64,000 bases of DNA. Origin: Lytechinus pictus (lineage: Eukaryota). This document shows positions 17,767-62,586 of this stretch, piece by piece. The stretch is from assembly GCF_037042905.1 (NCBI RefSeq), contig NC_087251.1, forward strand, positions 45,386,001-45,450,000, given 5' to 3'. The first letter of the stretch is position 1, and the number at the start of each line of letters is the position of its first letter. The translations under genes and the position numbers were made by a program. The notes under the pieces were generated by a model. That model saw only the letters and a program-made list of their open reading frames with translations, was not told the DNA's origin and searched no databases.

Positions 17767-17771
17767 TTAAT

Positions 17772-18020: not shown

Positions 18021-18053
18021 AACACCTATAGACCCAAGTTTTCTGTTCTCTAA

Positions 18054-20193: not shown

Positions 20194-20419
20194 TTAAGTG
20201 TTTCAAGAAGAACTCACCAGAACAATGTTTGGAAATCTACAAAATATTTACCAGTTTATCCCACTTGAGTGTTTCATGATCATGAGAGTGTCTAGTCCGA
20301 AGGAGTAACTCACTAATGATTTACGCATACCACTGATGCACAAAGGCATGGCTAAAAAAAGTTAAAACACAAAGCTACTAGCACTGAAAAACACAAGGAG
20401 TCATTAAATGAGTAACTGT

Positions 20420-27608: not shown

Positions 27609-27639
<31 letters not shown>

Positions 27640-31108: not shown

Positions 31109-31366
31109 CAATGTGGCGATGCATTATATACCACAGGTAATTTGAGATATAAAAGTGATTTTTAGTAAGACTTAAATCTGTGAGAAACACCTGCATGAAT
31201 ATATTCCATGGAGTTACAAGCATGGAGTTACAGAGAAACTCCATCCTAAGGTGTAGGCAGACCAGCAGTTCTGCTCACTATGAGTAGTATTTAGTAGTAA
31301 ACCCCTCCTACATGTATTAACAAGTTGAAGATCCGACCAAAAATGACACAGCAGACACCAATCAAT

Positions 31367-31846
31367 AGGTGGTTTCAAACCGCCCCGATCATAATTAAGA
31401 ATCCCCGTTAAATTACAAGAACATTTTTAGGCTAAAAAATACCCATTAATTATTTCTGCATTCACACCGCCCCAAAACATACCCTTCGGGATAAGTTCCT
31501 GAAGTTACGAGCATGCGCAGTATGGTCTGATAAGCAGGCAAGGCGCGAGATTCAAAATCACTAGCTCAGCAGCCACCCACGGTGCCCACGCTCAACTAAA
31601 CGCTGGGCTAAAAGTTCCCGTAAATTGCTTTCACATTGCCAAAATACCTGCGACCTTGGAAAAATCCCAGCGAAAGTTTTCGTAATTTTGACAAGTACCT
31701 GCTATTTAGTGGGTATTTTCTTTCGGGGAAATTACGCGTAGTTTGCTTTCACATTACCAAAATACCTGGTATTTTCTGATCGGGGTAAATTTCCCGATCA
31801 GAGAATACCTGGAACTGGCGAACTTCGAGGCGGTCTGAAACCACCT
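31367..31846 (+). mobile_element. Same ~475-bp MITE family
   Basis: AAT duplication on both sides. Confidence 0.9.
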
Positions 31847-33963: not shown

Positions 33964-34280
33964 GGAGCGTTGTGGCCCAGTGGATTAGTCTCCGGACTTT
34001 GAAACAGAGGGTTGTGGGTTCGAATCCCAGCCATGGGGTAATTTCCTTCGGCAAGAAATTTATCCACAATGTGCTGCACTCAACCCAGGTGAGGTGAATG
34101 GGTACCTGGCAGGAATTTATTCCTTGAAATGCGTGTGCGCTGTAATCTTAGTAATTACTGCTGCCAAGCTACAGCTGGGGTAATAATATCCAAGTCCTTT
34201 GGAAGCGCATAGAGACATTATTCATAATCGTGATATATGCGCTATACAAGAACTGTTTATTATTATTATTATTATTATTA
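33964..34280 (+). mobile_element. tRNA-derived SINE, family A, full length
   Basis: tRNA-like head with A and B boxes, shared core, (TAT)n tail. Confidence 0.88.
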
Positions 34281-38252: not shown

Positions 38253-38484
38253 CATGACATCATCATCATCATCATCACCACCATCATCATCATTCATCAC
38301 CATCATCATCATCATCATCATAATCTTCATCATCATCATCATCATCGTCATCGTCATCATCATCTTCATCATTCATCACCATCATCATCATCATCACAAC
38401 CACCATCACTGGCACCCCACCTCCATTATTAACATCATTATCATTAAATCACCAATATCATCATCATCACCATCATCATCATCA
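38098..38484. repeat. Compound (ATC/CAT)n microsatellite, left flank of the LTR element
   Basis: Degenerate ATC runs organised in a ~240-bp higher-order unit. Confidence 0.95.
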
Positions 38485-39901
38485 TGTTAGAGATTCAACC
38501 TTCCCCCTCAAGTGTATTCTTAATCCTTTGTATTATGTAATGCACAATAGTGCTCTGGAGTGAATAGTGAGTAGTTAGGCTCAGTGGTTAGGCTCCATCG
38601 CACTTAATTGTAATTAACATACTCAGCATTTTTGAACTGGGTGGGTTGCCTGTTTTAGCAGGAGTACCTCACTATCTGCACAGCTTTCACACAGGCAGGA
38701 CCTATTGGTCCTTGGGTCCAGTTGGGTGATTGGAAATGGAGAGTTAGAGTTTTAAGCCAAACACTTGCGCTGCAATAAAACTATATTCCAGAGTCAAGAT
38801 TCACTAAACCAACATGGAGGCCTGTTCCTGATTTCCTGCATTTAGTCATCCCAGTCAAACTGTAAGTTTAGTTGTTTTTTTGTCTCATTTATGTCTTGGA
38901 TTTTTATTATTCATTGAGAATAACAAAAGGTCAAAGAAAACCTCTAAAATGTGAGATGTGAAAGATGCTAACTATATTTTTTCATTAAAAGATTATTATA
39001 TGTCAACAAGAATTCCATCTGTTGAAATATTGAAAGGTCTTAAAATGATATTCTTAAAATATATAAGAAACTTTGCTTTTCCTAAGCATTAATGGATTAT
39101 GGAAAGTGTTTCTCATGTCATGGAATTTCTTTGTATGAAATGTTCGATTTAAGAGAAATGATGATGCTTTCTTTTCAATGACCGAATTATGTCATTCTAG
39201 ATTATACTTGAATACTTGAATTAAGCTAGGGAAATGATGTTTCCTTGAATATAGATAACCTATTATGTTATGGTTATTGTCCTATATGTATTCCGTAGAC
39301 TTTTTAAGTTTTGGAAATTGTTTAATTGTAGATGGGTTCTTCTTCATCTACATGGGAGTTCACCCAGTGGTTCTTCAGAAGTAAAGAAGTCTGGCAGCTC
39401 ATTTTCAGCCATTGACCAGACCAGTCAAGAGTAGGAGTAAAGGTTTATTAGAGGGCACCCACCAAGAACGGACAGCACCCTCGCTGACAAGATCTGATGA
39501 TGGTCGTTTATCATCGCTCGTTTTACTCATTCGTTACTCCTCATGAATTTTTAGCAGGAAGCAACAGTTGATTAAAGTGGGTTATTTTATTTATACCCTC
39601 CAGAGACTTAAAGCATTGTTTTGTAACCATATATATACTATTGTGTAACTTCCTTCGAGTTGAATATATTTTTGTTATTATTGTTTATCTTCTGTTTATT
39701 CTGGTCCACCTAAAACCAGAAGATTGAATTTAAATGTTGGAAGTTGAAGCCGGAAAACGAGTAATAAAACTAAACATATTTTATTTGTTGAACTAAATAA
39801 TAATTGTCTTCCATGGTCATTTATTTAGTTTTACAGTAGTGAGTTGAGAGAGTCACCATTCGACACAAGTTATGTCCATTTGAATTTATTCAGGTGTGAC
39901 A
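38485..39901 (+). repeat. 5' LTR
   Basis: TG...CA ends; direct repeat of 49406-50822 with the same length. Confidence 0.97.
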
Positions 39902-39905
39902 TTTT

Positions 39906-39944
39906 TGGGGGCTTGTCCGGGAGTCGAACCCGGGACCTCTCGCA
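39906..39944 (+). other. Extended primer-binding site complementary to the 3' half of tRNA-Pro
   Basis: TGGGGGCTTGTCCGGGAGTCGAACCCGGGACCTCTCGCA begins 4 nt after the 5' LTR. It matches the reverse complement of metazoan tRNA-Pro (recalled vertebrate sequence) at 36/39, including CCA. Confidence 0.9.
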
Positions 39945-40396
39945 GAATAAGGTTTCCTCTTATACTTCTTTATTACCAAAAGTGAAATAGATATTCTCAT
40001 TTTGTGAAGTACAAATTTGGAATTTTTCTACCTAAGAATATTCATAGATTGTTCTTGGACATTATTTTTGCTTTGTATAATGGGATATATTAGATATTAT
40101 CAAGTCAAAGCAGGATACTCCATAGAATGTAATTTCATGTGAATATTATTTACCGTTTTGATCGTTAATGCTACTTCTCTTTGAATGTTTTGTATTCTCT
40201 TCAATAATAGGAATAGTTGTGATTTGGTGATTAGAACGGAAATCGGATGCAAGTCTTCCAAGTCGGTTAAAGTGTTCTTGATTCTTTGGTAAGTAATCAT
40301 TTTGCGTAACTTTGCGCGCGTGTTTGGAAGAAGTTATTTTCTCAGATAGAATTTTAACCTTTTGATACAATAGTCCTGCCTGGTTAAGTTTTCATA

Positions 40397-43300
40397 ATGG
40401 ATTCTATTGATGAAAAATTGATTAACTTAGGTAAGGAGTTAGGATTAGTGGGTAAAGACTTGTTGGATTTCATTAAGGATAGAGAACAACAAGCAAGAGA
40501 AGAGAGAGCAACTGTAAGGGAAGATAGGAGACAGGAAATTGAGTTAAAGCAGTTAGAGGAAAATATATTAGATAAACAGTTGGCCTTAGTGCAGGCTAAT
40601 AAGGGTAATGAATCCCAGTTAGGAAATAACAGTATGCGAACCCATAGTTTGACAAAAGTCCCAAAGTTACCTCACTTTGACGAAAGTAGGGATAACATAG
40701 ATGCATACCTAGAGCGTTTTGAAAGGTACGCAAATAGTCAGAAATGGCAAAGTGATTGTTGGGCCATTAATTTAGGTGCACTTCTACAAGGGAAGGCTCT
40801 AGAAGTCTACAGTAGGTTGGCACCAGATGAAGCTGCTAAGTATTCAACTCTCAAGGACGCCCTCCTTCGTAGATACCAGATGTCTGCAGATGACTTCCGG
40901 AAGAAGTTCTACAGAGCAACTCCAGAGACAGGAGAGTCTGCTGGTCAGTTTATGGCGAGGTTAGAACATTACTTCGAGAGATGGGTAGATCTGACAGATA
41001 CAGCCAAATCATTTGAAGGGTTGAAAGATTTGATAATTAGACAGCAGTTCTTAGAGCAGATAAATCCAGGATTAGCTATTTACCTGAGAGAGCGTACTCC
41101 TCAGTCGACAAGGGAAATGACTGAAACTGCTCAGATTTATATTTCAGCACATGGTGGTCATTTCAAGGGTCCAAGAAAGGAAACCAAAGTAATGACACCT
41201 CATAAGTCTGAAACAAAGAGTGATGGTTTTCATAGGGAAAAGCCTAAGGGCCGAAAGCAAATTGGTCCTTGCTATCTGTGTGATCAAATGGGTCACCTTG
41301 CAAGAAATTGTAAGTCAAGTTCTAAATCAAAACTTGAGAAGGGTGGAAGTTTTGTAGATATTGGGTCCAAAACCAATAAACATAGGAAGTCTTCAGGTAA
41401 GACTAAATCTCATGATCCATGTCCTACGTGTTCTTCTTCTAAAGATTTAGGTGATGGCAGTGATATATCCCAGCTTGAGAGTGGGCTGTTTGTCATGATG
41501 TCTGCCTCAGGTATGGACCAGACAAGACCTACGAGGAAACAGAGGAAGAAACAGAAGAAGAAAATATCTGAGATGTGTGCGACTTGTAAAGGTAAGTTAC
41601 GCGAACTAATGCCTGTTACTGATGGTATTGTGAATTCTCAGACAGTTTCTGTTCTTAGAGACACAGGGTGTACTTGTGTTGTGATTCGGAAGAAACTAGT
41701 CAAGAAGGATCAGATGACTGGGAAATACAAGCTGTGTATTCTCATTGATGGTACGGTACGTTGGTATCCTACGGCTACGATACATATTGATTGTCCGTTT
41801 TTTGTAGGAACCGTTGTGGCGCTTTGTGTACGAGCACCACTGTTTGATGTTATTGTAGGAAATATCCAGAATGTTCTTCCTCCAGATGCGCCGAATCCAA
41901 ATTGGGGAATGCCGACATCAGGTAATGTTGTCACAGATAATGCTTTGTCTGAGGTGGGGATGGCTGTTGAGACGAGGTCACAGGTTAAAGCTGCTGAGAG
42001 AAAGCAAGCTCCTTTGAAGGTAATGTCTCCCATTCCAGAAGTTTCTCCACAGGATATACAGGAAGCACAGTTAGCAGATCCTACACTTAAGAAGGCAAGA
42101 GAACTTGCTGAGACCGAGGATGGTAGCAAAGAAGGTAAGAGAAATTATTTTTTCTTTCAGGATGGTTTGCTGCATAGAGTTTTCCAACCAAGTAGTGTTG
42201 TGAATGGAAACCAGGTTGTGCAACTTGTTGTGCCTAAGCCCTATCGGAAGGTTGTTATGAAACTGGCACATGAAGGTATTATGGGTGGACATCAGGGTGT
42301 CAAAAAGACTTCAGATAAGATAATGTTGAGTTTCTTTTGGCCAGGATTACAAGCAGATGTGAGTAGATTCTGCCAGTCGTGTGATATCTGTCAGAGAACT
42401 ATTAGCAAGGGAAGGGTCCCACGAGTTCCTCTTGGCAAGATGCCAATTATCGATGTTCCATTCAAGAGAATAGCTGTTGATTTGATAGGACCGATTCAAC
42501 CTATCACTTCCAGGAAGAATAGGTATATTCTTACAGTGGTTGATTGTGCTACTAGGTACCCAGAGGCGGTAGCCTTGCCCAACATAGAGACAACTACTGT
42601 TGCAGAGGCACTTGTTCAGATTTTCTCCAGAGTCGGTGTACCACAGGAGATTTTGTCAGATCGGGGCACTCAGTTCACCTCTGATCTTATGAAGGATATT
42701 GGGAAGTTGCTTTCAATAAAGCAAATGATGACGACCCCATATCACCCTGCCTGCAATGGGCTCGTTGAACGATTCAACGGCACGTTGAAGAAGATTTTAC
42801 GAAGAACTTGTTCAGACCGTCCCTCTGATTGGGATCGGTATCTCGCACCTATTTTGTTTGCTTACAGGGAGGCTCCTCAGGCTTCTATGGGTTTCTCACC
42901 TTTCGAACTCCTGTATGGACGCACTGTAAGAGGACCCTTAATGATTCTCAAGGAACTTTGGACGGGTAAGCAGCAGAATGAGGAGTTGAAATCAACCTAC
43001 CAGTATGTAGTCGAGCTGAAGGAACGACTGGAATCGACGTTAGAGGTTGCACAGCAAGAGCTGAGGAAGTCGATGGAAAGAAGTTCAAAGTACTACAACT
43101 CGAAGAGTAGGGAGAGAAGATTTCAGGTAGGAGATCAAGTTTTGTTGTTGTTACCTACTGAACACAACAAATTGTTAGTACAGTGGAAAGGTCCATTCAC
43201 TGTTGTGCACAAGCTCAGTGATCAGGATTATAGGTTAGACATTAATGGAAAACTTAAGACTTTCCATGCTAATTTGTTGAAACGTTATATCAGCAGAGAA

Positions 43301-44739
43301 GAAGACAGAGAAGAGTCTTTGACGGGTGATGAAGATCCAGCGGTTAGCGCTCAAGCTGTTGTCGTGACCGAGGATGATGACAGTGAAGCTAGTCCGATGT
43401 CAGGGAAGCTCAAGTCCATCGGTATTCATCTCCATCCACTTGAAGCAACTGAGACGACAGAAGATGTTTCAGTGTGCAAGAACTTATCTAAGGAGCAGAA
43501 GCGTGAGGTAAAGTCTTTGTTACTTGATTACAGGGAAGTCCTTACTGATCTTCCAGGAGAGTGTAAGTTGGGCACTCATTCAATCAAGCTGACTACAGAT
43601 GAGCCAGTACGTCAGAGACCATACCCAACTGCACATGCTCGCAAGAACACAATTGAGGAAGAAGTCAAGAAGATGCTCGAGATGGGAGTGATTGAGCAGT
43701 CTGAGTCTCCTTATTCATCGCCAATTGTGTTAGTTGGAAAAACTGATGGGACAAACCGTTTCTGCGTAGATTTTCGTCGATTGAATCGAGTGACAGTGTT
43801 CGACGCAGAACCCATTCCCAACAGTGATGAGATTTTCGCAAGTCTATCAGGATGTAAGTACTTCTCAAAAGTAGATCTATCTAAAGGGTACTGGCAGATT
43901 CCCTTATCCGAGGATGCTAAAGAGAAGACTGCATTCCGTAGTCCAAGTGGACTGTACCAGTTTTGCAGGATGCCTTTCGGTCTTGTTAATGCGCCGGCAA
44001 CTTTCAGTCGGGTAATGAGATCACTGCTCAAAGGTATGCCTTGCGTTCATAACTACTTGGATGACATACTCATCCATACTCGTACATGGGAGGAACATCT
44101 CCATGTTCTTGGAGAAGTCTTCAACAGACTTCGTTCAGCTGGTTTGACGGCACGGCCAAGTAAGTGTCAAATAGGATGTAACCAGATTGAATATCTAGGC
44201 CACATCGTGGGAGAGGACAAGCTTCTACCGATGCAAGACAAGGTGGAAAAGATTCGCAACGCTCCACCGCCAGAGACAAAGAAGCAGATGAGATCGTTCA
44301 TCGGGATGATAAACTACTACCGCAAGTTTATCCCTGATTTTGCATCAATTGCAGCTCCTCTGACAGACAAGACCAAAGGTCGTCAGCCCAACAAGCTTGT
44401 TTGGAGTGAATCAGACAAGAAGGCTTTTCAGCAGTTGAAAGACTGTTTGTCTACAGCTCCAGTTCTTTGCTTAGCTGATGTCGCTAAGCCCTTCATCATT
44501 CGCACTGATGCCTCGTCAACAGGTATCGGAGCAGTTCTCTTTCAAGAAAAAGAAGAAGGAAAACGCCCTGTTGCTTATGCCAGCAGAAAGTTACTTCCCA
44601 GGGAGCAAGCGTACTCTGCCATTGAACGCGAATGTCTCGCAATCGTTTGGGGAATTAGTAAATTTCAGGTATACCTAGATGGACGAGAGTTCATATTGGA
44701 GACAGATCACAAACCCCTCGTCTACCTTAACCAGTCTAA
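40397..44739 (+). CDS. Gag-Pol polyprotein, main part: SCAN-like capsid, CCHC knuckle, protease, integrase, RT and most of RNase H
   Basis: CYLCDQMGHLARNC knuckle; LRDTG protease; HHCC, DDE core and WKGPF integrase; FCVDFRRLN and YLDD RT; TDAS, ERECLA and TDHKPL RNase H. The ORF-track tail after 44739 reads into the inserted element. Confidence 0.95.
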
Positions 44740-45734
44740 TGGGGTGTTGCAAGAAAGTTACGTTGCAATTGATTGCAAATCGACTGCAACTTTGCAGCCG
44801 ATCCCGATCGACTGCAACTAGCAATCAATCGCCAATTTGCGTTGCAAGAAAAAGGCTTGCGATTGAACGCAAGTTGCAGCTGATTTGCAGACGATTTGCA
44901 GCTGTAAACAGGGTCTGCAGCACAAGACTAGCTGATGAAGCAAAATAATCCTTGCAATAATCGTGATTGTGGAAGAGAGTAAGTAGAAAATATTCATTTT
45001 TCACTGCTTTCTTTCTCCATTATGTATGTTTTCAGAGAATTTATATGTTTTAGACCTATGCCAGGGAAAAAATTATTTTGTAAAATGTGAAAATGTATCT
45101 TTATCGCCAGTCGAAATTTCACCTTCAAATTTTTTTTTACCACACAGTTTAAACCCAGTCCCACACTTGACTTTTTGTGTCGGTAATGCACTGTTGTACC
45201 AACAACACGGCAGGACATTCCCGGTGCAGTGCTGTTAAAAATCACCCTGAAGCAAGTAAATTTGTAGGCTCTAATTATGTATGAAACATCGAAAATGACC
45301 TTAAAAGATTATTATTGTTCATATTTGAAATGATTTTTAAGTTATATAAGTTTCAACGGCTAATAACCATCCAGTGAATCAGGCCAAAAAAAAACAACAA
45401 AGGTATAGGGGGTCTACATGTAGGCCTATATTATTAATTATTTTTAAAGATGTTATTGGGCTATTAAACCTATTGGCCACATCTGCCACATTCTTTGGGA
45501 AGTTTTAACATTGAACAGGGAGTTGCCCGCCCGGGGCTCTTTTTAAAATTTCTTACGGGTAGATTGCACAAGAGGTTCTTTGCAAGGACAGTCTATTTGT
45601 GTCGTTGATTTGTAATGATGTGCCGTATGAGTCACATTTTTAATATCCATCACATATAAATATAAAAAGATATAGGGCCTACATGTAAGCCTAAATAATT
45701 CTATTTTTTAGATTCAATATGTAGGTCTACTATG

Positions 45735-46155
45735 CCGGGGGGAAGGTACTTAGATTTGGTTTGGACAAAGGTGTGCGGCTGAAGGTTTGAAACCCGTACC
45801 CATATTTACAGGTCATTTCGGCTAAAAAGGTACCCATTATTAGGGATTCATTACAGGGGCGGATCCAGGATTTCCACAAGGGGGGGGGGGCACATTTTCG
45901 CCTGGAAAACTTGACAAGCAAAAAAAAAAGAAAAAAGTTATCGCCCAAAATGTAAGGTAATTTTGTATTTGCACCAAAGACAAGAGTAGAATATGGACCC
46001 ATGTTTAAGGCCAGTATCTAAAAATTGGGCCATGTTTAGGGATTTTCCAGCATAAAATCATACCCCATGTTTAGGGATTTCTTCCAAAAAGGCAACCCAT
46101 TCCAGCGGCACATCCCCATATGCATTATTTTGTGAGTCCCCCCCCCCCCCCCGGG
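45735..46155. mobile_element. CC(G)n...(C)nGG-ended MITE inside the Harbinger-like element, with a CAGGGGCGGATCCAGG-family fragment inside it
   Basis: Ends CCGGGGGGAAGGTACT and GAGTCCCC...CCGGG. The segment from 45854 matches the minus-strand element ending at 30160. Confidence 0.6.
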
Positions 46156-48172
46156 CTACTATTTAACTGACTCTAGTCTTAACTTGATTTTTATGCAAGC
46201 ACATGAGGTGCTATATAGATGACAGATTTTTTTTCACTTTAAATTGTTTAATGGATGATTACAATGCTTTTCCAGGTGCTTACAGTAAAAGGGTGTCTCA
46301 TATGGTGCATCATTATCATTTTATTAATATTGAATGCATAATCATGATTTTTTTTTTACATCCTTTTACATCAAGCACAATACTCGGGGGGGGGGGGGCA
46401 TATGGTCCCCCTTCACATTTTTCAGAATAAATCTGCAACTCAAAATTTTATTACCGCACCACTGACTGGCGTTTTACTTTCAAGTCTCGCGCAACTTTTG
46501 AGACCAAATTTGCAATTCCCAGGTACAGGGTCAGGAAATTTTGCAACATTGTGTTTGTTTAAGTACATGTCAGACAAAAACATGATTACATGTAAAAAGT
46601 TAATTGGGTAATTTTTTTTATTGACAATAGTAATTTAATGTCACTGATGAACTTTGTCTTGAAAATAACAACAACAAAAAATACATTTAAGAAGTTAAGA
46701 AAAAATATTAAAAAAAAAACATGAAAGGATTTTTTTTTATACCAGATTTTTTAAAGTAAAGTTGTTAGGAATGCTCTTGAAAGGAATATGTACACCAAAG
46801 TTTAGCATTCTATTACAAGCTTTTTTTAGTAAATTAAAGCAAAAGGTATGATTCATAATTTTCTTATTGCGCCGCCCATAGCTGAGGAACCATAGTACCC
46901 CTCCCCAGGACAGAAGTGACTTTAATCAAAACACCCTGGGACTACTATAATGATTAACACACTGGCAACTGAGCTTAACTTGTATATTAATTTCATGAAT
47001 ATGTTTTATCTCTTTGCTTTTTGCTTTTAATTGCTTACTACAGTTATGACAAGGAAGTCTGGAATAAACCGAACCACCATAACTGTGTCTGCTACCATGT
47101 GTGTTCTTGCAACCAGCTGATTGATTCATTTTATCAACTCTTGAATGGTAGGTTGCATGTAAACTGTATTATTATTAATAATTCACCATGATTGTAATGC
47201 GGATGGGGGTGAAATCTGTACACATTGACCAAAGGATAATGCAAAATGAAAAAAAGGCAAACACAAATCTCTATCTTGACTGGACTTCACAGCAATGAAG
47301 ACATCCCATTGATGGGGGGGGGGGGAGGGGGCGGTTGTTGTGCTCATCCAAGGTGTACTGTATGAAAGTGTGTATTTTGCTTTCATTGATTTAATTTATT
47401 GCATATTTTAATTTCCATGATTCATTTATTTGGGGAAAAACAATCAGTTCACACTTTTTTAGATTACATCATGGCAAATTGCCAATTACTATGGTCTCAG
47501 GAGTAAGCCACTTTCCCTCTATCTTATCATCATGTCGGTGCAAACAACGCCCTTACCAGCAGGCATAGGGGCATTTCTGCACCAATGGGGTGCACAAAAA
47601 TGTTTTGCTAAGGGCGTTTTTACACTGAAAGGACAAAATTTGAACTAACCCAAGCTACATGTATGTATAGTTATGGGCTTGCATTATTTCCTATATTATT
47701 ATTTTTTTATGGACAGGTTGATTATCAGAACTGAATTCAGAGCTGCTCCTGTCTGTAGTAAGATCATTTAGAGTGGACTTCAGAATGAGGGCGTTGCTTG
47801 TTTAAAATCTTCACTCCATGAAGCTCTCCAAATTCATCTCAAATTAGACTGCTTCTGGAAACCAGATTTGTTCCTTCAAGCAGAGACGCTTGTGGCTTTC
47901 CTGACTGGACTTCTATGGATTCTTCATGCCAACCTTAAGGACTGTGGTCTTCTGCATGATACGTCAATTTCAAACAAGACATTCTGTGGTGAAACACTTG
48001 ATGTAGATGATATGAAATTTTATTTCATATAACTGAATCTCAGAAGTAATTCCTCGGGAGCAAGAAACATTGAAAAATAAAAATAAAAGGTCCATCAATA
48101 TTGAATGTCTTGAGCAGTGTTCTTTTTTTTGTGCACAGATCAATGGATCTTTTCAAGTCCAAGCAGCCGAAG

Positions 48173-48303
48173 CAGGGATGTAGTCAATGCTGACCTCGAG
48201 GCAACATTTTGCTGGCCTTGGTCCGAGTCACTGTACAGAATCTATGGGAAGTTCTCTCAAGCTGCCTCATGACTCGGAAGAATCAGCCTCGACCTCATCC
48301 CTG
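48173..48303. mobile_element. Small hAT-like MITE inside the Harbinger-like element
   Basis: TIR CAGGGATG...CATCCCTG; no TSD recognised. Confidence 0.5.
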
Positions 48304-49169
48304 TATGCAAGTGTGATATATATCTACGATGCAATCTTATGATTAAAGAGAGCTTCAGATTTTGAAGTGTAGCAATCTCCTGAAATGTATGTTTTATTTG
48401 AAAATCAAACTAAAATAACTTAATTGGGCATGTTATTCATTATGATATGTATGAATGAAAGCATTTAAGCAATTTAGTGCTCTTGCAAAATAAATTCTGA
48501 GTTGTATTTACTGCAAACCCTCAGATATATTTATAAGCATTTGCCAGTGCATGAAGTGTTTTAATAAAGAGTGGCTTTTGTGCCTATGGAGAGTTATTAT
48601 TTCTTCAACATTTCTTCATACAAATTATTTCAGAAATCACAATTTGAATATTCCATGACCTCTGATAACAAGAGCAGAATATTTTTGGTGATTGACACAC
48701 TTTAAAATGATATTAGGAGAGAATGTACTGAAATTGTGTGAAAATAATGGCATAATTGCTGAAGAGGCCTATAAAGATTGAAAATAACATTATTTCAAGT
48801 TTTTCTTGAAAAAAACCCATGGAAAATTGAAAATGGCATAATTTACACAAGTTTTCAAAACAAAATACAAAAAAAAAAATTTTGCAGAATTTTTAGTACA
48901 CAAGCCTATGGACAATCAATTGAACGTAAATCGAACGCAAATTTTGCGCGTCCTCCAAAATCTCACATAAGTTACGTTCGATTTGCAATCAATCGCAAAG
49001 CTTGCGCTTGATCTACGTTCAATTGATCAAACGCAACTTCTTCTTGCAACAGGATTGAAAGTAACTTGCGTTCAATTGCAGATTTGCGTTTAATCGGAGG
49101 ACTTACGCTCAATTTTGGGAGTTGCGTTCGATTTGCGTTCAATCGCAAGTTTCTTGCAACACCCCATAA

Positions 49170-49287
49170 GTCGACTAATAGTAGAATCATGAGGTGGGCT
49201 TTATCTCTCCAACCTTACAGGTTCCATATTGAAGCTATACCAGGTTCGGAGAATGTTGGCGCGGATTTTCTAAGCAGGGCAGTTTGA
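49170..49287 (+). CDS. Displaced C-terminus of Pol (end of RNase H)
   Basis: STNSRIMRWALSLQPYRFHIEAIPGSENVGADFLSRAV*. It joins in frame to ...LVYLNQSK once the insert and one TAA are removed, giving 1486 aa. Confidence 0.93.
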
Positions 49288-49392
49288 GTTTAAATTAAGT
49301 TTAAGTAAAGCAAGAGAGCTTAGATTTATTTCTATGTCAATCCACTTTTGGGGATAGATTGAATATTTAATGTAAATATGAAATATTTTCTT

Positions 49393-49402
49393 AAGGAGGG
49401 GG
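49393..49402 (+). other. Polypurine tract
   Basis: AAGGAGGGGG ends 3 nt before the 3' LTR. Confidence 0.85.
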
Positions 49403-49405
49403 TGA

Positions 49406-50822
49406 TGTTAGAGATTCAACCTTCCCCCTCAAGTGTATTCTTAATCCTTTGTATTATGTAATGCACAATAGTGCTCTGGAGTGAATAGTGAGTAGTTAGG
49501 CTCAGTGGTTAGGCTCCATCGCACTTAATTGTAATTAACATACTCAGCATTTTTGAACTGGGTGGGTTGCCTGTTTTAGCAGGAGTACCTCACTATCTGC
49601 ACAGCTTTCACACAGGCAGGACCTATTGGTCCTTGGGTCCAGTTGGGTGATTGGAAATGGAGAGTTAGAGTTTTAAGCCAAACACTTGCGCTGCAATAAA
49701 ACTATATTCCAGAGTCAAGATTCACTAAACCAACATGGAGGCCTGTTCCTGATTTCCTGCATTTAGTCATCCCAGTCAAACTGTAAGTTTAGTTGTTTTT
49801 TTGTCTCATTTATGTCTTGGATTTTTATTATTCATTGAGAATAACAAAAGGTCAAAGAAAACCTCTAAAATGTGAGATGTGAAAGATGCTAACTATATTT
49901 TTTCATTAAAAGATTATTATATGTCAACAAGAATTCCATCTGTTGAAATATTGAAAGGTCTTAAAATGATATTCTTAAAATATATAAGAAACTTTGCTTT
50001 TCCTAAGCATTAATGGATTATGGAAAGTGTTTCTCATGTCATGGAATTTCTTTGTATGAAATGTTCGATTTAAGAGAAATGATGATGCTTTCTTTTCAAT
50101 GACCGAATTATGTCATTCTAGATTATACTTGAATACTTGAATTAAGCTAGGGAAATGATGTTTCCTTGAATATAGATAACCTATTATGTTATGGTTATTG
50201 TCCTATATGTATTCCGTAGACTTTTTAAGTTTTGGAAATTGTTTAATTGTAGATGGGTTCTTCTTCATCTACATGGGAGTTCACCCAGTGGTTCTTCAGA
50301 AGTAAAGAAGTCTGGCAGCTCATTTTCAGCCATTGACCAGACCAGTCAAGAGTAGGAGTAAAGGTTTATTAGAGGGCACCCACCAAGAACGGACAGCACC
50401 CTCGCTGACAAGATCTGATGATGGTCGTTTATCATCGCTCGTTTTACTCATTCGTTACTCCTCATGAATTTTTAGCAGGAAGCAACAGTTGATTAAAGTG
50501 GGTTATTTTATTTATACCCTCCAGAGACTTAAAGCATTGTTTTGTAACCATATATATACTATTGTGTAACTTCCTTCGAGTTGAATATATTTTTGTTATT
50601 ATTGTTTATCTTCTGTTTATTCTGGTCCACCTAAAACCAGAAGATTGAATTTAAATGTTGGAAGTTGAAGCCGGAAAACGAGTAATAAAACTAAACATAT
50701 TTTATTTGTTGAACTAAATAATAATTGTCTTCCATGGTCATTTATTTAGTTTTACAGTAGTGAGTTGAGAGAGTCACCATTCGACACAAGTTATGTCCAT
50801 TTGAATTTATTCAGGTGTGACA
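49406..50822 (+). repeat. 3' LTR
   Basis: Direct repeat of 38485-39901. Confidence 0.97.
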
Positions 50823-52862: not shown

Positions 52863-55130
52863 CTGATCGGCAGACAAAGTTCTAGAGAACAACACAGAAA
52901 TAATCAACTAACCAAGAACTGAAGAACTGTTTCATAACACATGCATTTTGTTATGAAAGCTAATTCAAACAGAGTGATTATTATTCCAAATAATTTCTTT
53001 TATACCTATGATGTTGCAAAGCTGGTGTCTGTGGACAATAAGAATTCTCCCGATCATAGAAATATGGGTACATTTAGGTTTTACACAACTAATATAGGCA
53101 TACAAAATAAAGCCAATTGCATATCACTCTCATTTATCATTAACACAAGGTTTTGATGTAACAAGTTATCTTCAATACAATTTATTATGAGAATGCTAAA
53201 TTTTACATGTACAACAAAATCTCTGGGTTCATAAAAGGAAAAAAAAAATATTGAGGAAGTTGTTCATCATTCAAGTCTTATTTAATTTTACTTGTTATGA
53301 TATTCTGTTTTCTTTATCCAACTACATGTACAATGTCCTTGTTAACCCATAAGACTTTATCAAATATATGGATAAATGTTATGTACATGCATGTATGTAC
53401 ATGTACACATGTAGTATGAGTCAGAACTGTTTTATATTTAAAAAACACCTTAGAGACTTTAATTATCAGTTGCCAATTTGCATCTTCAAAAATTGCAGAG
53501 ATGTCTCCTAAAGCTCCAAAAGGAGATTTTATAAATGTAGTCATGTCCACTTCATAGTGGTATACAATATAGAAGTTTTGGCTGACATCGAAAATTTGAA
53601 AAAAAAAGTGCTCTCAGATTTCAAGTAAAATAGTGTATTTCAAATACCCCACTGAAAAAAAATGATGTTAATTTATTTGCTAAGCCATAATTCACAATAA
53701 ACGTATATACTCTAAAGGTTTAATAGCATCTGTCTACAATGTATGCCAGCTGAAATCCAATTGCACAGGGTACTGGTGCTCAATCACATGTATTTTCAAT
53801 TTAACAAGAAAGCTGTAAATACAATATGGCTTTTAAACTTGACCTATGATCTCTATATATGAAAGCAGTCTTGATGATCAGACACTTTGTTGCATTGCAA
53901 ACTCTTTTCCTTCTATGATTTTCTGCGGTTGAATGGAACACATAAATCTATATCAATGCCTGTTAAATCTTTATGATTACAAAATAACTAAGCATGTACA
54001 GTACATGGACATTACACAATCTAATCTATCGTTGAAATGATCCTCATCATTAGCTCTGTTCTATCAATTAAAACCACGTTATCACATCCAAAGATTACAA
54101 AATGTATCATAATGTATACAAATATTGACTGCACATGAGAATGACTGTGTAAATTTATCATTCCCAAGGTGCATTCATACCAGCCCTTCTATCACCCCCC
54201 CCCCCCCCCGAGTCCTTGGCCCAGGGTTGAAAGAAGGGGGCCCAGTATGAAAAGCACCGAGGGAATGATGATTTTTACTGTCATCTGAATAAAGAGCAGT
54301 CCATGTTTGTTTTATACATGTATATACCTCATTGTTAATCACATCAGCCTAGACCTACGGGTTTCAATTTTAGGACCACTCTCTAATTTGATTTGTTATG
54401 TCCCTTTCATACTGGCCTCTTCCTTTTTCCCCAGCAAACTTCTCCGGCAAGCATTCCTCACTTTCCCCAGCAAAGAGAAAACTGTGCCCTTTTGCATCAA
54501 CATCTCTTCCCTGGCGAAAGTCGATGGGCGATTTGCCCGGGCGGAGGTGCAGACCGGGGTAAAATGAAGGCCAGCGCTTTTTTAATTTTCCGATATATCG
54601 CAATACAGAAATCAACGTTTAATACTCATTAGCCTGAGCTGAACAAGCTCAGCACGTGCACAATGAACAAAAAGAAAATTGTCAACATTGCTTCTTATCA
54701 AGTACTAAAGGTATTAAAAAGTTTAAATTACAATATCTTTTAGAAAGATTAAAAGAAAAAAAAATCAGAGTATTTCAATATTTTCAGTGCATCTTTAGCA
54801 TGTAAAAGATGCTTTTATCATAAATATCATTAGTAAAAAAGAAACGGTATGTTCGAGGGTATTTAACTCTATGGATTGATCGGTCCTCCGCTTTATTCAG
54901 CATGCAGAATCTCGGTTCAGAGTATTTTCGGGATATGAAATTTGACCTCTGACGTCATTAAAGCAGAGAAGTTCTCACGGTGAGCTTTCATATTGGCCTT
55001 TTCACTTGCAAACTTCGCCGGGGACGTTCTCCTGTGTACCTTTCATACACTGGACACTTTCCCCTTTGCTGGTGAAGTTCACCGGCGAAAAGCAGTCTTA
55101 TGTAAGTGGAATAATCACTTTGTAATTTAA

Positions 55131-55310
55131 ACTGGGCGTTGTTGTGGCGTGCGCCTGTAATCCAAACTGTGGGGAAGTTCCAAATTGACGCAAAGGTTCG
55201 AGCCCTGGTCACATCTTTCGGCTGGTGACTATAAAGGTCGGTCCCAGACGTAAATAATCATATCTGATTGATACACATCTGACAAAACTCAAATACACAC
55301 ACACACACAC
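55131..55310 (+). mobile_element. Putative 7SL-derived SINE: Alu-domain head, Deu/Nin-like body, (CA)n tail
   Basis: ACTGGGCGTTGTTGTGGCGTGCGCCTGTAATCC resembles the 7SL/Alu 5' end. B-box GGTTCGAGCC at 55195; (CA)n tail. No TSD seen. Confidence 0.65.
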
Positions 55311-57022
55311 GAGCTGCACTGCTATGGCCAGCCAGGGCACCATTGGCTGCGCACACATGACCCGAGCAGTAGCATGAAAAGCGCAGCAGCAGTCAGTTAA
55401 TGTTCAATAGCTCTAGCCAGGTAGATGCGCGCTTTATAGCAACATAACTTGCGGTCCCGCTCTCAGGTGATATAAGTACTATCAGAGGGTTCGATAGAAG
55501 AAATTGACAGTAAGTAAAAGCCCTAAGATGATGATAGACGGCATAGCACCTCGTCACATGATGCAGTTTTGACCAATCAGTGATAACTATCTTAGTATGA
55601 GGTATATAATAAATTATGTTCCACTGCTAAAATGAACTAAAACGTACATGTACATGTACCTGAAAGCTAACAATGGCAATGTCAGAATAAAGAAATAAAA
55701 ACTTGTTCCATCTCCTCTTTAAAAAGCAGATCTATACAAATATTGTACCAAAGAAAGAGTATTTCAACAAAAGATTAAAACTATTGTCACTCAGAATTGA
55801 GTGTCATTTCTAAACTACTCATGTACATGTACATTGTATTGATTGCCCTTTTCATTTTCATGACGACCGCTGTACCGAAATGACACATTGATTAAACACA
55901 TCAGAAGCGACGAAAGCCTGCCAATAGAGACTAAGTATCATTATTCTGATCGGAGTGTTTAGAGTATTTACACTCAACTTATCACTTGGCATATTACGGA
56001 TGACAGCCTGACTGGGCTGGGTGCCACATGAAATTTGTAGGGTTGCATTTCATACATATTGCAAAGGATTCACAAGCTAATACATGAAAGAGTGATTGTC
56101 TCCCAGACTCTCCGGGTATGATGCGCCATACAGAAGCGAAGTGGTATACATACCGTATTTGAAACTTAACCCAGAAGAAAGAGATCGGTTGCAAACAAGG
56201 AGACGCTTTTGTTCAAGTACAAATAATCTACCCCAAATTATCCACAGTGATTCTTCATCCACATGATCCAAAAGCAATATTGTAATGTTATCGTAATACA
56301 TGTACCAAAACTACCAGTATAAATGCAAATTGATGAATTACAGCAAAACTAAAAATCTAATTATTATGATGAAGAAGTAGATCATAAATGACACATATAT
56401 CAATAGCTTAAATATCACCCCAACATTTATGATTCTGTCTATTTGGTAAAATATTATAATCACAAACATAAAAAATAAATGCATATCCATGAAAATTGAA
56501 TTTCCATTAAATGTGATCACATTTTTGAAATTCAGTAATTTTGAGCCAAATGTAGTATTGTCACACAAGAGGATTGAGTGGATGGGGGATACACTACACT
56601 ACAGGCGACCAGCAACTCCACCCCTAAACTTGTCTTTGCTTGGTCAAAATAATACTTAAAGACCAACTTAATAACCATCATCAATGTAGCCCTGAAAATT
56701 CTGTACAAATATGAAAGGGGGAAAATACCCTGAACACGATCCTTTTCTGATTGGTTATTTATGATACCCTAACACACCATGCACGTACACTGTATGATAT
56801 TAAGCCAATTACAATAGAGCAAAAACATGTACTTCTCATCACGTTTGTGAATGTGTAGGCCCCTACCTAGTGATATATTTCTGCCCCCCCCCCCCCCCTA
56901 GACTTAAATATGATCCACATGTGAATAAACAAAATATACCCTTTTCTTTTTTAGGACACAATATAACACATCTGAGTATCTATTTCGGACTAAATTTAAA
57001 GATAAAGGAAAAATTTGCTTAC

Positions 57023-57243: not shown

Positions 57244-57808
57244 CTGTGAGAAGAGAGAATCAATTATTGTCAATATCACATTCTCATGCTCATATGTATG
57301 TAGTAAATCTGCTCAGTTTAAATTAACTGAATGAATAAATCTAATGATAATAAAAAAATAACATTGTAAACCAACAATTGTGTGATCAAATTTCGCATCA
57401 TTCATCAATAAGTAGGCCTATACATTTAGAAACATACATATACAGTATAAGCAAATTGATTATTGAATTACATGTACACAGTAGCTTGGCATAGATTTGA
57501 ACGACATAGATGAAACACAAATTCATTAGCTTCTAAAATATTGTACAACTTTGTGTGAAGTACATACTGCCGCACTTGATGTCATATTCCAGTTGTTGTA
57601 AGCCTACATGTAGTTTCCCTGTTGGTGCTATTATTTTCGGTAAATTTTTGAAGCCCTTGTCAACTGTACTGTAAATGGCGAAAATGAGGCTGCTTTAATC
57701 ATTTAATTGGGCTTGGATGAAGTGCAAAGTTTCCACTTGGGTTCTGGAAATTCCAAAATCTTTCTACTTTAAACATTAATAGGCAAGATGGGGGAACCCG
57801 TAACAGAG

Positions 57809-58785
57809 AACAAGTGGAGCGCCTCTGGCAGTCTCACCTGCATCATGCGATTCAATATAGCAGCAGTGCTGACTTTGAAAACTACTATAATTATTCACAA
57901 AAAACACAATTCATATAATGATACAATATGTTCATTGACAATAAATGACATTTGACCTTGATCATGCGACCTAAGACTTGTCAGTGATACTTGATTACCC
58001 ATATATCCACATCTGATTATCTATAAACTTGAAAGTTATGACAGCAATCTAATAATTACCTCCAAAATGGCCAAAGTTCATTGACCTTAGATGACCTTTG
58101 ACTTTGGTCATGTGACCTGAAACTCATGTGAGATGTTCAGTGATACCTGATTACTCTTATGTCCAAATTCTATGAACTAGAGCGATGCACTTTCGGAGTT
58201 ATGATGTTTATTCAACAATTCCCCCCAACATGGCCAAATTCATTTACCTTTGTCATGTGACCTAAAACTTGCACAGGATGTTCAGTGATACTTGACTACT
58301 CTTATGTCCAAGTTTTATGAACTACATGTAGACCAATACACTTACAAAGTTATGATGGTAATTCAACAAATACCCCCAACATGGCCAAAGTTCATTGACC
58401 TTAAATGACCTTTGACCTTGGTCATGTGACCTGAAACTTGCACAGGACGTTCAGTGATACTTGATTACCGGTACTTTTATTTCCAAGTTTTATGAAATCA
58501 GATCCACAAACTTTTAAATTTATGATGGTAATTCAACAAATACCCCCAACTTGGTCAAAGTTCATTTACCCTAAATGACCTTCGACCATGGTCATGTGAC
58601 TTGAAACTCAGGCAGGATGTTCAGTAATACTTGATTAACCTTATGTCCAAGTTTCATGAACTAGGTCCATATACTTTCTAAGTTATGCTGTCATTTCAAA
58701 AACTTAATTTTCTGTTAAGATTTGATGTTGATGCCGTCGGAAAACTGGCGCCTATAGTCTCACTCCGCTATACAGGTGAGACAAA
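57809..58785 (-). mobile_element. HINE-like element, older copy
   Basis: Same termini and tandem units, more diverged. Confidence 0.8.
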
Positions 58786-59848
58786 ACTTTGAAATACGGG
58801 AATTTAAAATGTAGCACAACTTGTCAACTAACCACTACCCTCAAAAGACAGACTATAATATATAATTAATTAATTATACAAAGAGAAAAACACAGAGCAA
58901 ATACATATAGATGCTGAGAATTCACAATGGGGAGAAGGAGAAAAAAAGTGCATGAACTGTACATGTAGGCCTATTGGAAGGAGGAAAAGTGGATATTAGA
59001 CAGAGGTGATACAAAATAGATCGTGGAAGGATGCCATGGCAAAAAATAGACGAGTTCAGAATAAATCAGAAAGGGAGCATTTTATAAAGAGTTTGGTCAG
59101 AAATTCCACTGACTAATTTGTTCTCAGCCAATCAGATGCAAGGATTTCAGTAACAATTGTCAGTGTAAATCACCTACTGTTTGTTTCATGAAACCCTTAC
59201 CCGAAAAGGGGAAATCCACAGGAGAGCCAAGGGAAATTAGAGAAAAACAAGAAGAGAAGACCGTCAGTCAGGAAATTGAATACAGGTTGCGAAAGCTTCA
59301 CCAATTGTCTGTTTCATTATTTGCACCCATAAAGTGGAAGATTTGACACTGATGGCCAATATCAGTTTCTTACGAGGAAAAATATATCATTACACTGTTC
59401 CAACATATTACACTGTACATGTGCCTTGACATTTACTTTTTCTCAGTATGCTGTATTCTACGGTGTGTCGAGTGTCTGATGTTTCCATGTAACATGTATG
59501 AATATTTGGATCTGGATTAAACCCCATTGGAAACGAGCCATCTCGGCTTTCAATAGCTTTCCCGTCACAGTATTTTGATACTTTTTATCTCATGAATACT
59601 TGCATCTGTTATGACATAATGTATCTGGGGAATAAAATGAATCAACAAATCAATTGATTGTGAATAATCATTTTTATTAAATCTACTACCATAGTGTGTT
59701 TAAAACTCAAACTTCAAAGTTTTCATAATCATATATAAGATAACCTATTTATAATTTCAAACATTTATCACCCTCCTCATCATACTTGTAAATTTTCTTG
59801 CATTGAAATCTACAGTACAATAATCTTGTTTCACAATCTACATAAATG

Positions 59849-60105
59849 TAATAATATAGGATTTGTATAGCTCAAGGTGCTCAAGGCGCTCCTATATTAC
59901 CCCGGCTAAGCTAGTCTACCGATTCTGGTGCACACAGCTTTTTGAGGAATTTCTTCCTGCCAATACCCATTTACCTCACCTGGGTCGAGTGCAGCACAGT
60001 GTGGATAAATTTCTTGCTGAAGGAAAACACGCCATGGCTAGGATTCGAACCCACAACCCTCTGTTTGAAAGGCGACAGTCAGAACCACTAGACCACGACG
60101 CGCCC
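59849..60105 (-). mobile_element. tRNA-derived SINE, family A
   Basis: Head, core and short (TAT)n tail as in the other copies. Confidence 0.82.
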
Positions 60106-60749
60106 ACATGTACGCGAATTCAAGGAATATATAGTGCTTGAAAATGCATGTTTTTCAAATAAATTTTATTCATAAAATCAATAAATTTTTTGCATTTGCA
60201 AACATCTTTAGAAATATGTAAAGTCTACAACTTTCCTTTGATCAATATAAAACAGTATGTACGTGTCAGTCATTGCTGCTTTTTTACTTTCTTCATTTAT
60301 TATGCTTACTGTTCTCTGTTAATATGTTGTGGTATCACTGTCTATTCTCACGGGATCAATATACATAATCAGAGCTAAAACACACATCAAAGACATCCCT
60401 CCAGGCACAGTCCCCCTTCACTTTGTATTTGCTTGTGAGATTGAATTCACCTACAGACAAGAAAGCGGCTTTGTGCTGATTTAACACTCGGGGAAACACA
60501 TTGACCCTGGCATTTGTCTGTGCTGTGCAACTCAACTGTACATGTTTACACGTCGTCGAATGGAGAGAAGCAAAGCGTGTTGTGAACATACATGTACAGG
60601 GGATGAGACCCCAGGGATCTTAGATGGTATCAAATGAATGACTGATTTCTATATATGAAGTTGGCTATGTTACAATGATGGTTTCATGTCTTTCTGTCTC
60701 CCGTTTTGCACATCGAGTGAATGGCTTTTAATAGGAATTTCCATGTTAA

Positions 60750-61351
60750 AGGGATGGTCCGGGCCGAAAATATTTATAACTAAATAAATATAACAAAATT
60801 CACAGAGCAAAATGCTGAAAATTTCATCAAAATCGGATGACAAATAACAAAGTTATTGAATTTTAATGTTTATCAATATTTTGTGAAAACAGTTACATGT
60901 ATATATGCACATCGTCATGAATATTCATTAGGTGGGCTGATGATGTCACATCTCCACTTTCCTTTTTCTTATGTTATTACATGAAATCATGTTTCATTTT
61001 TTCATACCTGTGTAAATGATGTGTCTGCATCATAATGAAATAAGTTGCGGCAATAAATAATGCACTCAATCAATTGTCAATCCAATTGTTTTAGTTTTTG
61101 GTAGAAATTTTTTGAATAAACCTAATTTCATATAATAAAATACAAAAGAACAAGTGGGGATATGACATCATCAGCCCACATAATAAATATTCATAAAGAC
61201 ATGCCTTGAACTGTTTCACCAGTATAATACAAATCTTTAAAATTCAATAACTTTGTTATTTGTTATCCGATTTTGATCAAATTTTCAGCATTTTGCTCTG
61301 TGAATTTTACTCTTTATTGAGATATAAATATTTTCAGCCTGGACCATCCCT
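60750..61351. mobile_element. Kolobok-like MITE, related subfamily
   Basis: TTAA|AGGGATGGTCC...GGACCATCCCT; shares the internal GAAAATTTCATCAAAATCGGAT motif. Confidence 0.85.
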
Positions 61352-62586
61352 TTTATTGAAATGTACATGAAAATATACATGTAAGGAAACTTAGTTTGAT
61401 AATCTTGTTAATAGCCTAGAAAAATGCACATAGGGCCTACATGTAAGGTAACTAAAAAGTTTAATAATCTCTATGGTAGCGATTTGAATTTCAAATGAAG
61501 GTTAATGAAGAGAAATAGTGAAAAATCTATGTACAGTATAAAGTATAGGCAATAATTACAGACTTGGAATATTAGTTTTGAGTTAATAACTGGAGCTCTG
61601 TCAATTCACTCTACATTGTTGCAGGTATTTGAATGAGACATGTCAATTTTAAACTCAGGAATACTCTGAAAGTAGTCAGCTGTATGAATTTTCATTATTT
61701 TTAGTTTTTACTGCAGAATGAAACAAAATATCAGACTTAGATGTATGCCACACTCTCTGCATGCATTTGCATACAAGAGAACTACGAGGAAGAGACAAAG
61801 GGAAAGAGTGAGAGTAGAAGAGAGACAGAGCGAGTGTGGAAGGGAGAGGGGGGGGGGACACCTTGCAGTAGCATGGGAGTAGTCACTCTTCTGAAGGTGT
61901 ACAATTTGTCACAATCGCCGTAGCCGCATGGTGTGGCTACACTGGACGCATGCCATACAGACGAGCTGCAAGTCAGATTGAAGCTACCCCTACCGTCTGG
62001 CTTATAAATAGCTTACACAGGTGTCTGATGCCGTGATCTCTCTAATGAGCTCTACGAGGGCCATAATATACACACCCCAGCATGGACATAGCCAAGAGGT
62101 ACATGTAAACATGTCGAGCAGGCCTAGCCTGCTGATTTACAAGCAATGATACAACTTGGTACACGATGCAAAGGACATGTAATAAACAACTATGAAGAGG
62201 AAATATATTTGATTTCATACTGGAGTGATTTAAATTGAAACTATTAAAAAGAAACATGTGGAATAGACATTTGGTGAGAATTGTTCCTTGTTGGATCTAA
62301 TGTATGGTGCACCCGAGGTTATATACCAATTTCCTAATAAATATTATGTCATGATATAAAAGGGGTTCAATTAATCCAAGACCATGACTTTGGGTGCCCT
62401 ATTGGCCCAAATGTCCCTCTCATTGGCCTTAAGATATTTTGTTTTCCCTTTTTACTTTTTTTTTTTGCCAATTGTGCTTTATTATTTATATAACAGTAGC
62501 CTTTCACTACAAAATATCAAACTTAATGGCCTGCATGAGTACCATAGATTTATATACATGTATGTGAATCAGAACTTTGAGCTTAC

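Follow-up and report, generated by a model that had tools for sequence, protein, structure and literature searches.

A putative SINE family of Lytechinus sea urchins that joins a 7SL-derived head to a tRNA-type box B and a Deu-like domain

In the 64-kb stretch of Lytechinus pictus DNA analysed here (the window, 64,000 nt), positions 55131-55310 of the plus strand hold a 180-nt copy of a short retroposon that we interpret, with a probability of about 85%, as a member of a chimeric, 7SL-headed SINE family of Lytechinus sea urchins. The edges of the copy were placed from contig depth in two public DNA runs, X1 and X6 (see below). The motifs that an initial annotation had described in this interval were all found there, and its interpretation of the element as an Alu-like retroposon is supported, with the restriction that only the 5' domain (~46 nt) corresponds to 7SL. 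By the origin of its head, the urchin family would be classed as SINE1.

The assignment of the first ~50 nt to the 5' domain of 7SL/Alu, together with the SRP model proposed as a check on it, was upheld by Rfam. In an 801-nt scan the best match was Metazoa_SRP (RF00017) at 55131-55198 (24.2 bits, E 3.6e-4), and the model aligned the 5' Alu domain of metazoan SRP RNA to 55131-55178 (48 nt, plus strand), with its closing helix, two hairpins and UGUAA junction. The gathering score of 70 was not reached because 248 of the 299 positions of the SRP model were skipped in the alignment. Across the whole window the same match has an E-value of 0.029 and ranks second of 13 by E-value, behind a miRNA-hairpin match (E 0.0041) that is probably due to chance. 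Rfam scans around the element also gave matches to EBV sisRNA-1, snoU2-19 and sR52, which were set aside as chance or CA-driven. Standard pairs occupy 12 of the 14 model pairs in the head of the window copy, namely 3/3 in the closing helix (55131-33/55176-78), 6/8 in the first hairpin and 3/3 in the second, both hairpins lying on the plus strand within 55131-55178. In the first hairpin, 55140/55150 is a true mismatch (U-U), and 55141/55149 is a non-standard pair that is non-standard in the Rfam consensus as well. The closing helix had been described as altered and still able to pair, and this was confirmed, with two of its three pairs changed on both sides relative to the Rfam consensus and pairing retained. 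Minimum-energy folding of the head gave no gain over shuffled sequences (z +0.54 for 48 nt, z +1.98 for 82 nt), and the fit to SRP RNA therefore rests on sequence and known architecture rather than on stability.

The strongest sequence evidence for a 7SL head is the match to the consensus of the hagfish family SINE1-1_EBu (supplement of PMC7245038), with which 55144-55163 is identical over 20 nt. Roughly calculated, 20 identical nt shared by a 282-nt query and the window would be expected in about 3 of 100,000 cases. Read by eye on the majority letters of the family, that is with a 3-nt duplication of the window copy and position 55166 set to the majority state, the head agrees with SINE1-1_EBu at 28 of the first 30 positions and at 36 of the first 45. 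After nt ~46 the likeness to the 7SL-derived head of the hagfish element falls to 4 of 15 positions (by eye), which indicates that 7SL sequence does not extend beyond the 5' domain. Over 60 nt the by-eye comparison amounts to 40/60, with all of the signal in the first 46 nt; SINEBase asks for 60% identity or more to tRNA, 5S or 7SL across a minimum of 60 nt, and the reference used here is a hagfish SINE, not a 7SL gene. A 3' Alu segment of 7SL was found neither in the SRP alignment nor as an SRP match in 55170-55330, the folds of the element contained no long stem, and by the SRP alignment the element is not a near full-length 7SL with S domain (P7SL type). By the SRP and hagfish comparisons, the head is 7SL.

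We regard it as very improbable that the element is an ordinary tRNA-headed SINE resembling 7SL by chance. All sea-urchin SINEs in PMC3747384 are given as tRNA-derived, the tRNA-headed SINE of the window starts with a similar 10-nt word and the Rfam score is weak, all of which would suit a chance resemblance. Such a resemblance would nevertheless have to produce the exact 20-nt match, the 36/45 agreement with a 7SL-derived head and a three-helix junction. Moreover, a true tRNA head gives the opposite result with Rfam, since the 801-nt control scan around the tRNA-headed SINE of the window returned a weak tRNA-clan match (14.4 bits, E 9.6) and no SRP match. A head fitting a tRNA better than SRP RNA had been named as grounds for abandoning the 7SL interpretation, and what was found is an SRP match with no tRNA match, the reverse of the control. 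No tRNA was detected in the element by ARAGORN or Rfam, a result that is weak for worn heads, the control itself reaching only E 9.6. No significant alignment was obtained between the head and the tRNA heads of the window; the best of 12 tests (p 0.027) lies towards the 3' end of the tRNA-headed SINE, in its 3' part. A tRNA-derived head with a tRNA box A, as in SINE2, was not found, and the box-A-like stretch sits inside the 7SL 5' domain at 55131-55178.

The 7SL part is followed on the plus strand by a linker (55179-55194) that is not 7SL-like and is possibly the worn 3' half of a tRNA; Rfam gave neither an SRP nor a tRNA match in 55170-55330. A tRNA-type Pol III box B then follows at 55195-55204 (plus strand), assigned by pattern match to a consensus that we take to be the usual one. 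This pattern was found 15 times in the window and is weak evidence on its own; the box has 7 nt in common with box B of the tRNA-headed SINE at 33960-34150. The initial annotation had placed a B box where 7SL/Alu carries its own. The pattern at 55195 bears this out in part, but the motif that it had named for 7SL is not the 7SL box B, which occupies positions 76-86 (PMC7245038), and the sequence is unlike the 7SL-derived head past nt ~46.

Alternatively, the entire front of the element could be a diverged 7SL 5' segment of ~70 nt in which mutation created a tRNA-like box B, with no tRNA SINE head ever involved. Box B and a GAG-containing motif in the hagfish 7SL-derived head do lie in nearly the same register, differing by ~3 nt at most. 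However, the low identity past nt 46 (4/15, by eye), the skipping of the part after the 5' domain in the Rfam alignment, and the succession of box B and Deu start, which is the layout of tRNA-headed Deu SINEs, make this origin unlikely.

A Deu/Nin-like central domain, aligned by eye, would be represented by its 5' ~38 nt (55208-55245, plus strand). Compared by eye with the post-Meta part of BivaMD-SINE1_AsNo, 29 of 42 columns are identical; the majority letters at 55213, 55222 and 55231 raise this to 32, while the change at 55230 is neutral. By eye, the Deu/Nin resemblance noted in the initial annotation is limited to this first part. A Deu-like motif is also found in the hagfish SINE2-7B_EBu. 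A by-eye comparison with the post-head part of BivaMeta-SINE1 revealed no likeness to the Meta-domain, and energy folding of the element body gave no signal.

At 55245-55281 (plus strand) lies a 3' stem-loop made up of an outer stem, an internal loop and a 6-bp inner hairpin. Folding of 55243-55295 gave -7.2 kcal/mol (z -2.40), with 6 of 200 shuffles equally good, and 55245-55281 alone gave z -1.35, with 20 of 200 shuffles equally good. The outer stem has a single mismatch, at 55249/55277. As modelled, the stem-loop is a probable LINE recognition signal. It is followed by an A-rich end and a (CA)n tail of variable length (55282-55310, plus strand), from which loose ends lead into unrelated DNA from 55303-55310. 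The element contains no T4 run, and the first downstream, a possible Pol III stop, is at 55567-55570 (plus strand).

The initial annotation was also correct in describing a (CA)n tail, a single copy in the window and no target-site duplication, of which 0 candidates of 5-20 nt were found at the window copy. Lack of a target-site duplication together with a 3' hairpin also fits rolling-circle elements, and could point to capture of a 7SL 5' domain by a multicopy small-RNA gene or by a non-autonomous DNA element of rolling-circle or MITE type. We consider such an element highly improbable, as no inverted repeat joining the two ends was present among the 25 longest of 56, and box B, the Deu-like domain, the variable (CA)n tail and the 3' bias of the copies (see below) are traits of SINEs. 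A target-site duplication is usual for SINEs and not required (PMC11481361).

Sequences from public runs of another sample, organism A, allowed the window copy to be compared with its family. Differences from the window copy are described here for the 41 of 139 that were displayed, and the majority letters come from organism A, which may be another species. The displayed differences within the element are near-fixed in DNA runs X1 and X6, and several of them improve structures for which there was an independent prediction. The 3-nt duplication of the window copy (55138-55143, plus strand), an insertion relative to the Rfam model, is absent from most run copies, the 3 nt at 55138 being omitted in 7,239 of 7,742 depth in X1 (93.5%) and 12,009 of 12,361 in X6 (97.2%). 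At 55166 the majority letter is G, with more than 99% of depth in X1 and X6 and 226 of 234 reads in RNA run X11, which brings back the GCU that the Rfam consensus has in its second loop. In SRP, that GCU pairs with the first loop (loop-loop pairing). At 55277 a majority G (97% of depth in X1 and X6) closes the outer-stem mismatch with 55249. None of the displayed majority differences falls at the mismatch places of the first hairpin. The family therefore fits the 7SL, Deu and 3'-stem models better than the window copy does, and the window copy is a worn family member.

That the element is dispersed is evident from the same runs. Ten of 24 public runs (all of organism A, from four studies) contained 0.08-0.13 of the words of a 2-kb stretch and none contained half, a share of 8-13% that is about the share of the element in this stretch. 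DNA runs X1 and X6 (two studies), a small run and RNA run X11 were then aligned on 54801-55700 at 80% likeness. Summed depth in X1/X6 was 640/1,011 before the 5' edge (55101-130), 208,894/239,303 in the first bin of the element (55131-160), 655,209/755,738 at 55281-310, reaching more than 1.1 million close to the tail, and 264/605 beyond the 3' edge (55311-340). The jumps are thus 326-fold/237-fold at the 5' edge and 2,480-fold/1,249-fold at the 3' edge. At the places listed in 55303-55310, at least 135 contigs in X1 and at least 102 in X6 exit into differing flanks, counts in which alleles may appear twice, and the 3' flanks of element contigs agree only at 0.37-0.41 (X1, X6). This is a dispersed repeat with fixed edges, interspersed rather than tandem, and at 180 nt with unrelated 3' flanks it agrees with the definition of a SINE as short (<1 kb), interspersed and not tandem (SINEBase, PMC3531059). 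A single-copy sequence, which would have spoken against the initial annotation, is not what was found, since the repeat has the same edges in two DNA runs of two studies.

Summed contig depth is not copy number, as short overlapping contigs inflate it, and the number of loci is better approached through the least covered places within the head. In X1/X6 these have depths of 7,742/12,361 (55138) and 31,802/61,088 (55180). Contigs with unique flanks have depths of 14-67 (X1) and 40-55 (X6) among the eight listed per run, so that depth at 55180 is roughly 1,100-1,300 times that of single-flank contigs. These figures point to a few hundred to ~1,300 head-bearing loci in organism A. Depth climbs from the 5' to the 3' end, a rise that agrees with 5'-truncated retroposition and could partly reflect other families sharing the tail or loss of alignment near the changes of the window copy itself. 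No empty-site joint was present among the 15 joints listed.

The element might also be human Alu contamination, or the product of a single event at this locus that joined a headless SINE to a piece of 7SL, and its single copy in the window could be read in this way. Against a one-off join, the head is itself repeated, with 74 and 84 contigs covering 55166 in the two DNA runs, and is joined to the body in both contigs and reads. Two contigs of X6 carry head and body on one molecule (55146-55299 and 55150-55281), 213 RNA reads have head-side sequence before 55194 (agreement 0.85), and the join is present in runs of four studies, three of which cover the head. Against a contaminant, the element lies within a sea-urchin intron. 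Either origin is hardly credible.

Organism A has a depth of 0 over 55371-55430 of the unique flank, and is probably a close relative, not the window's own animal. If it is a separate relative, the family would predate the split of both. In RNA run X11, which is uninformative on strand and starts for this element, both directions are equally represented, 88% of reads run on into other sequence and there is no pile-up of starts; the run therefore shows copies embedded in longer transcripts and gives no sign of a Pol III RNA. A minority of tail-to-head joints was also observed in X1 and X6 (at least 12); in 9 of the 12 listed, 55303-55311 is joined to 55141 with 5-23 letters between (best depth 465). 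These may represent tandem copies, insertion into the tails of older copies or a dimeric subfamily. The repeats that flank the SINE at 54921-55100 and 55460-55610 are multi-copy in organism A as well (depth up to ~37,000 and ~7,500), the latter is also found in RNA reads, and 54985-55090 resembles 54404-54519.

We propose that the family would have arisen during reverse transcription of a tRNA-headed Deu-type SINE, through a jump of the enzyme onto 7SL RNA as its new template. The front of the tRNA head would have given way to the initial ~46 nt of 7SL, and the tRNA-type box B, the Deu start and the LINE-type tail would have stayed. Descent of box B from a tRNA SINE by such a switch is probable. 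There are precedents, as the 5S plus partial-tRNA heads of DeuSINEs arose by template switch (PMC4824008) and in hagfish 7SL was added to an older tRNA SINE (PMC7245038). Within the window, no tRNA-headed sister with the body of the element was found, and the tRNA-headed SINE of the window was rejected as their donor, nine alignment tests of body and tail having given nothing significant. Pol III would then transcribe a copy from the 7SL box A and the tRNA-type box B, and from these motifs such transcription is very likely. The 5' domain would fold as in SRP, bind SRP9/14 and carry the RNA to ribosomes, and the reverse transcriptase of the partner LINE would recognise the 3' stem-loop and (CA)n end. 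The copy, frequently shortened at its 5' end, would then be inserted by target-primed reverse transcription.

In human cells, a 5' Alu domain of 46 nt equals the 86-nt domain in SRP9/14 binding and supports retrotransposition (PMC11760393). We consider it reasonably likely that the urchin head binds SRP9/14, and tentatively suggest that this binding helps mobility. Ribosome targeting aided by SRP9/14 is favoured because the element keeps just the 46-nt 5' domain. It is quite possible, however, that in the same family the 7SL piece acts as a Pol III box-A donor only, with the Alu fold as inherited baggage and mobility ensured solely by the 3' stem-loop. Folding of the head shows no stability signal, the U-U mismatch of the first hairpin is not changed among the displayed majority differences, and the 3' Alu segment kept by all other 7SL SINEs is missing here; LINEs that read a 3' structure may also have no need of ribosome targeting. 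Against a role as box-A donor only, the 7SL part ends exactly where the SRP9/14-binding 5' domain does, and all three helices and the junction motif are retained. Youth of the family or a structure-guided template switch could also account for this. The full proposal, in which the urchin family is a natural minimal 46-nt Alu and the first 7SL-headed SINE outside vertebrates, made by template switch and not by central deletion, and hijacks a structure-reading non-L1 LINE through ribosomes, is in our judgement slightly short of an even bet. If true, the SRP9/14 route of retrotransposition would be general and recurrent, and would work without 3' Alu stem, poly(A) or L1.

For the partner LINE, we slightly favour the CR1/L2 group over Nimb/I. 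An absent target-site duplication fits CR1/L2 partners. The urchin SINEs listed in PMC3747384 are tRNA-derived with CR1 or L2 partners. In favour of Nimb, some bivalve SINEs with Nimb-related tails (PMC11481361) end in a similar A-rich and (CA)n way, although this likeness, by eye, is weak. No LINE with the tail of the element was found in the window. A tail 24-mer had 0 matches in genome_contigs, 0 in viral_contigs and 1 in metagenome_contigs, collections that hold no urchin genomes. The single metagenome match (L001) is a bacterial contig sharing ~27 nt (465-491) with no likeness to head or flank, and was discarded as chance; the same contig carries the end of a group II intron at 2412-2488 on its minus strand (48.3 bits).

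Amongst known SINEs, the nearest in construction is the hagfish SINE1-1_EBu of Eptatretus burgeri (PMC7245038), which likewise has a 7SL head on an older tRNA-SINE body, a microsatellite tail and a likely non-L1 partner. It differs in keeping a 96-nt 5' 7SL segment that includes the 7SL box B, together with a 3' 7SL segment, compared with ~46 nt in the urchin element, in which a tRNA-type box B and a Deu-like start are found. The hagfish family also has a bipartite RTE sequence and target-site duplications of ~17 bp, whereas the urchin copy has a short stem-loop tail and no duplication. Alu, FLAM, B1 and Tu of Euarchontoglires and Urop of a shrew mole share with the urchin element a 5' Alu domain at the very start and an internal Pol III promoter (PMC13023118). 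All of them arose by central deletion of 7SL with both ends kept, have poly(A) and use L1. Having no 3' 7SL segment, it falls outside the central-deletion type of Alu, B1, Urop and Ebu1-1, and its (CA)n tail sets it apart from SINEs with a poly(A) tail and L1 partner. The nearest precedent for a hybrid head is one tree-shrew Tu unit of dual 7SL/tRNA origin (PMC13023118).

In the DeuSINE/Nin group (SINE2-3_SP, BivaMD-SINE1 and the 5S-headed AmnSINE1; PMC4824008) the Deu domain similarly starts right after box B, and head swaps by template switch (5S plus partial tRNA) are known. The Deu domain measures ~38 nt in the urchin element compared with 70-330 nt in the members described, and no 7SL head was encountered for the superfamily in the passages of PMC4824008 consulted. 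The same 7SL extent, the 5' domain alone, is found in SA46/AY46, an engineered 46-nt minimal Alu domain (PMC11760393). That is a laboratory construct used with poly(A) and L1 in human cells, unlike the urchin element, which would be a natural family with a structured tail. The SINE2-n_SP families (PMC3747384, PMC4758252) come from the same animal group and may have body or tail in common with it, but carry tRNA-derived labels and CR1/L2 partners.

The initial annotation had placed 7SL SINEs mainly in Euarchontoglires, plus a hagfish family. This largely agrees with the literature, with Urop of the shrew mole as a third vertebrate case. The hagfish family was called the first evident SINE1 outside Euarchontoglires in 2020 (PMC7245038), and a 2024 paper places 7SL SINEs in primates, rodents and hagfish only (PMC10886601). 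According to PMC13023118 (2026) they are exceptional, being found in supraprimates, hagfish and one shrew mole, and the central deletion is said to enable them. No report of a 7SL-headed SINE from an echinoderm or other invertebrate was found in the accessible literature, which mostly excludes subscription journals and Repbase Reports. Repbase lists 282 families for S. purpuratus (PMC4455052), and the family may be catalogued in Repbase or Dfam without its 7SL head having been recognised; it could even be identical with one of the SINE2-n_SP families, which differ from it here by label and not by compared sequence.

An echinoderm family would extend the 7SL-SINE type to invertebrates, and an urchin family without any 3' Alu segment would break the central-deletion rule of PMC13023118. 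Its 7SL part ends at the minimal SRP9/14-binding unit as placed by experiment (PMC11760393). Why Alu-type heads do so well could then be put to the test in a separate lineage, and in a sea urchin genus used in the laboratory, where hundreds to thousands of copies would allow selection on the fold to be examined.

The single copy in the window lies antisense within an intron of a Lytechinus BAH-domain gene. The flanking exons on the minus strand are 57253-~56996 and 52172-51987 (splice edge approximate, ~52160); a search with the latter gave three matches, each of them a sea-urchin protein. At 64000-62579, the exon agrees with Lytechinus pictus LOC129264149 at 469 of 474 positions and with the Strongylocentrotus counterpart, which has the BAH domain, at 377 of 480. 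An intron of 40 kb appears to separate 51987 from 12029 in this gene (minus strand). The exon at 12029-11931 carries the continuation of the Strongylocentrotus and Diadema proteins, while the L. pictus model reads into the intron and ends, and the annotation of the gene in L. pictus may be cut short.

The surrounding DNA is rich in other repeats. The tRNA-headed SINE, with boxes A and B, is present in five copies, at 1008-1191 (minus), 4169-4350, 15913-16077 (minus), 33960-34145 and 59925-60104 (minus); its body presumably represents a CORE domain, and the 10-nt word that its start has in common with the 7SL head may be chance. A Gypsy-type LTR retrotransposon at 38484-50822, with two 1,418-bp LTRs that are 100% identical, lies within an (ATC)n tract. 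Its 1,477-aa ORF (40388-44821) encodes SCAN, a zinc knuckle and an integrase ahead of RT and RNase H, an order that we take to recall Gmr1-like elements, and the end of pol seems set apart by ~4 kb of other DNA. On the minus strand, 5627-5962 is an open frame that may correspond to the C-terminal end of a CR1/L2-type ORF2; it has no tail in common with the SINE. MITEs of ~480 bp with short terminal inverted repeats, 80-97% alike, are found at 3149-3630, 18942-19445, 24582-25064 and 31363-31852. Imperfect palindromes of ~600 bp, probably non-autonomous DNA transposons, occur at 1465-1996, 6158-6772, 11039-11617, 14953-15563, 17175-17770 and 60748-61353. Repeats with internal tandem units of 162-192 bp lie at 9171-10132, 26881-27690 and 57801-58786, one of them ending in (CGCCGT)n, and repeats of ~400 bp, 89-96% alike, lie at 8524-8929, 18050-18451 and 19810-20200, with an internal hairpin that draws chance miRNA matches.
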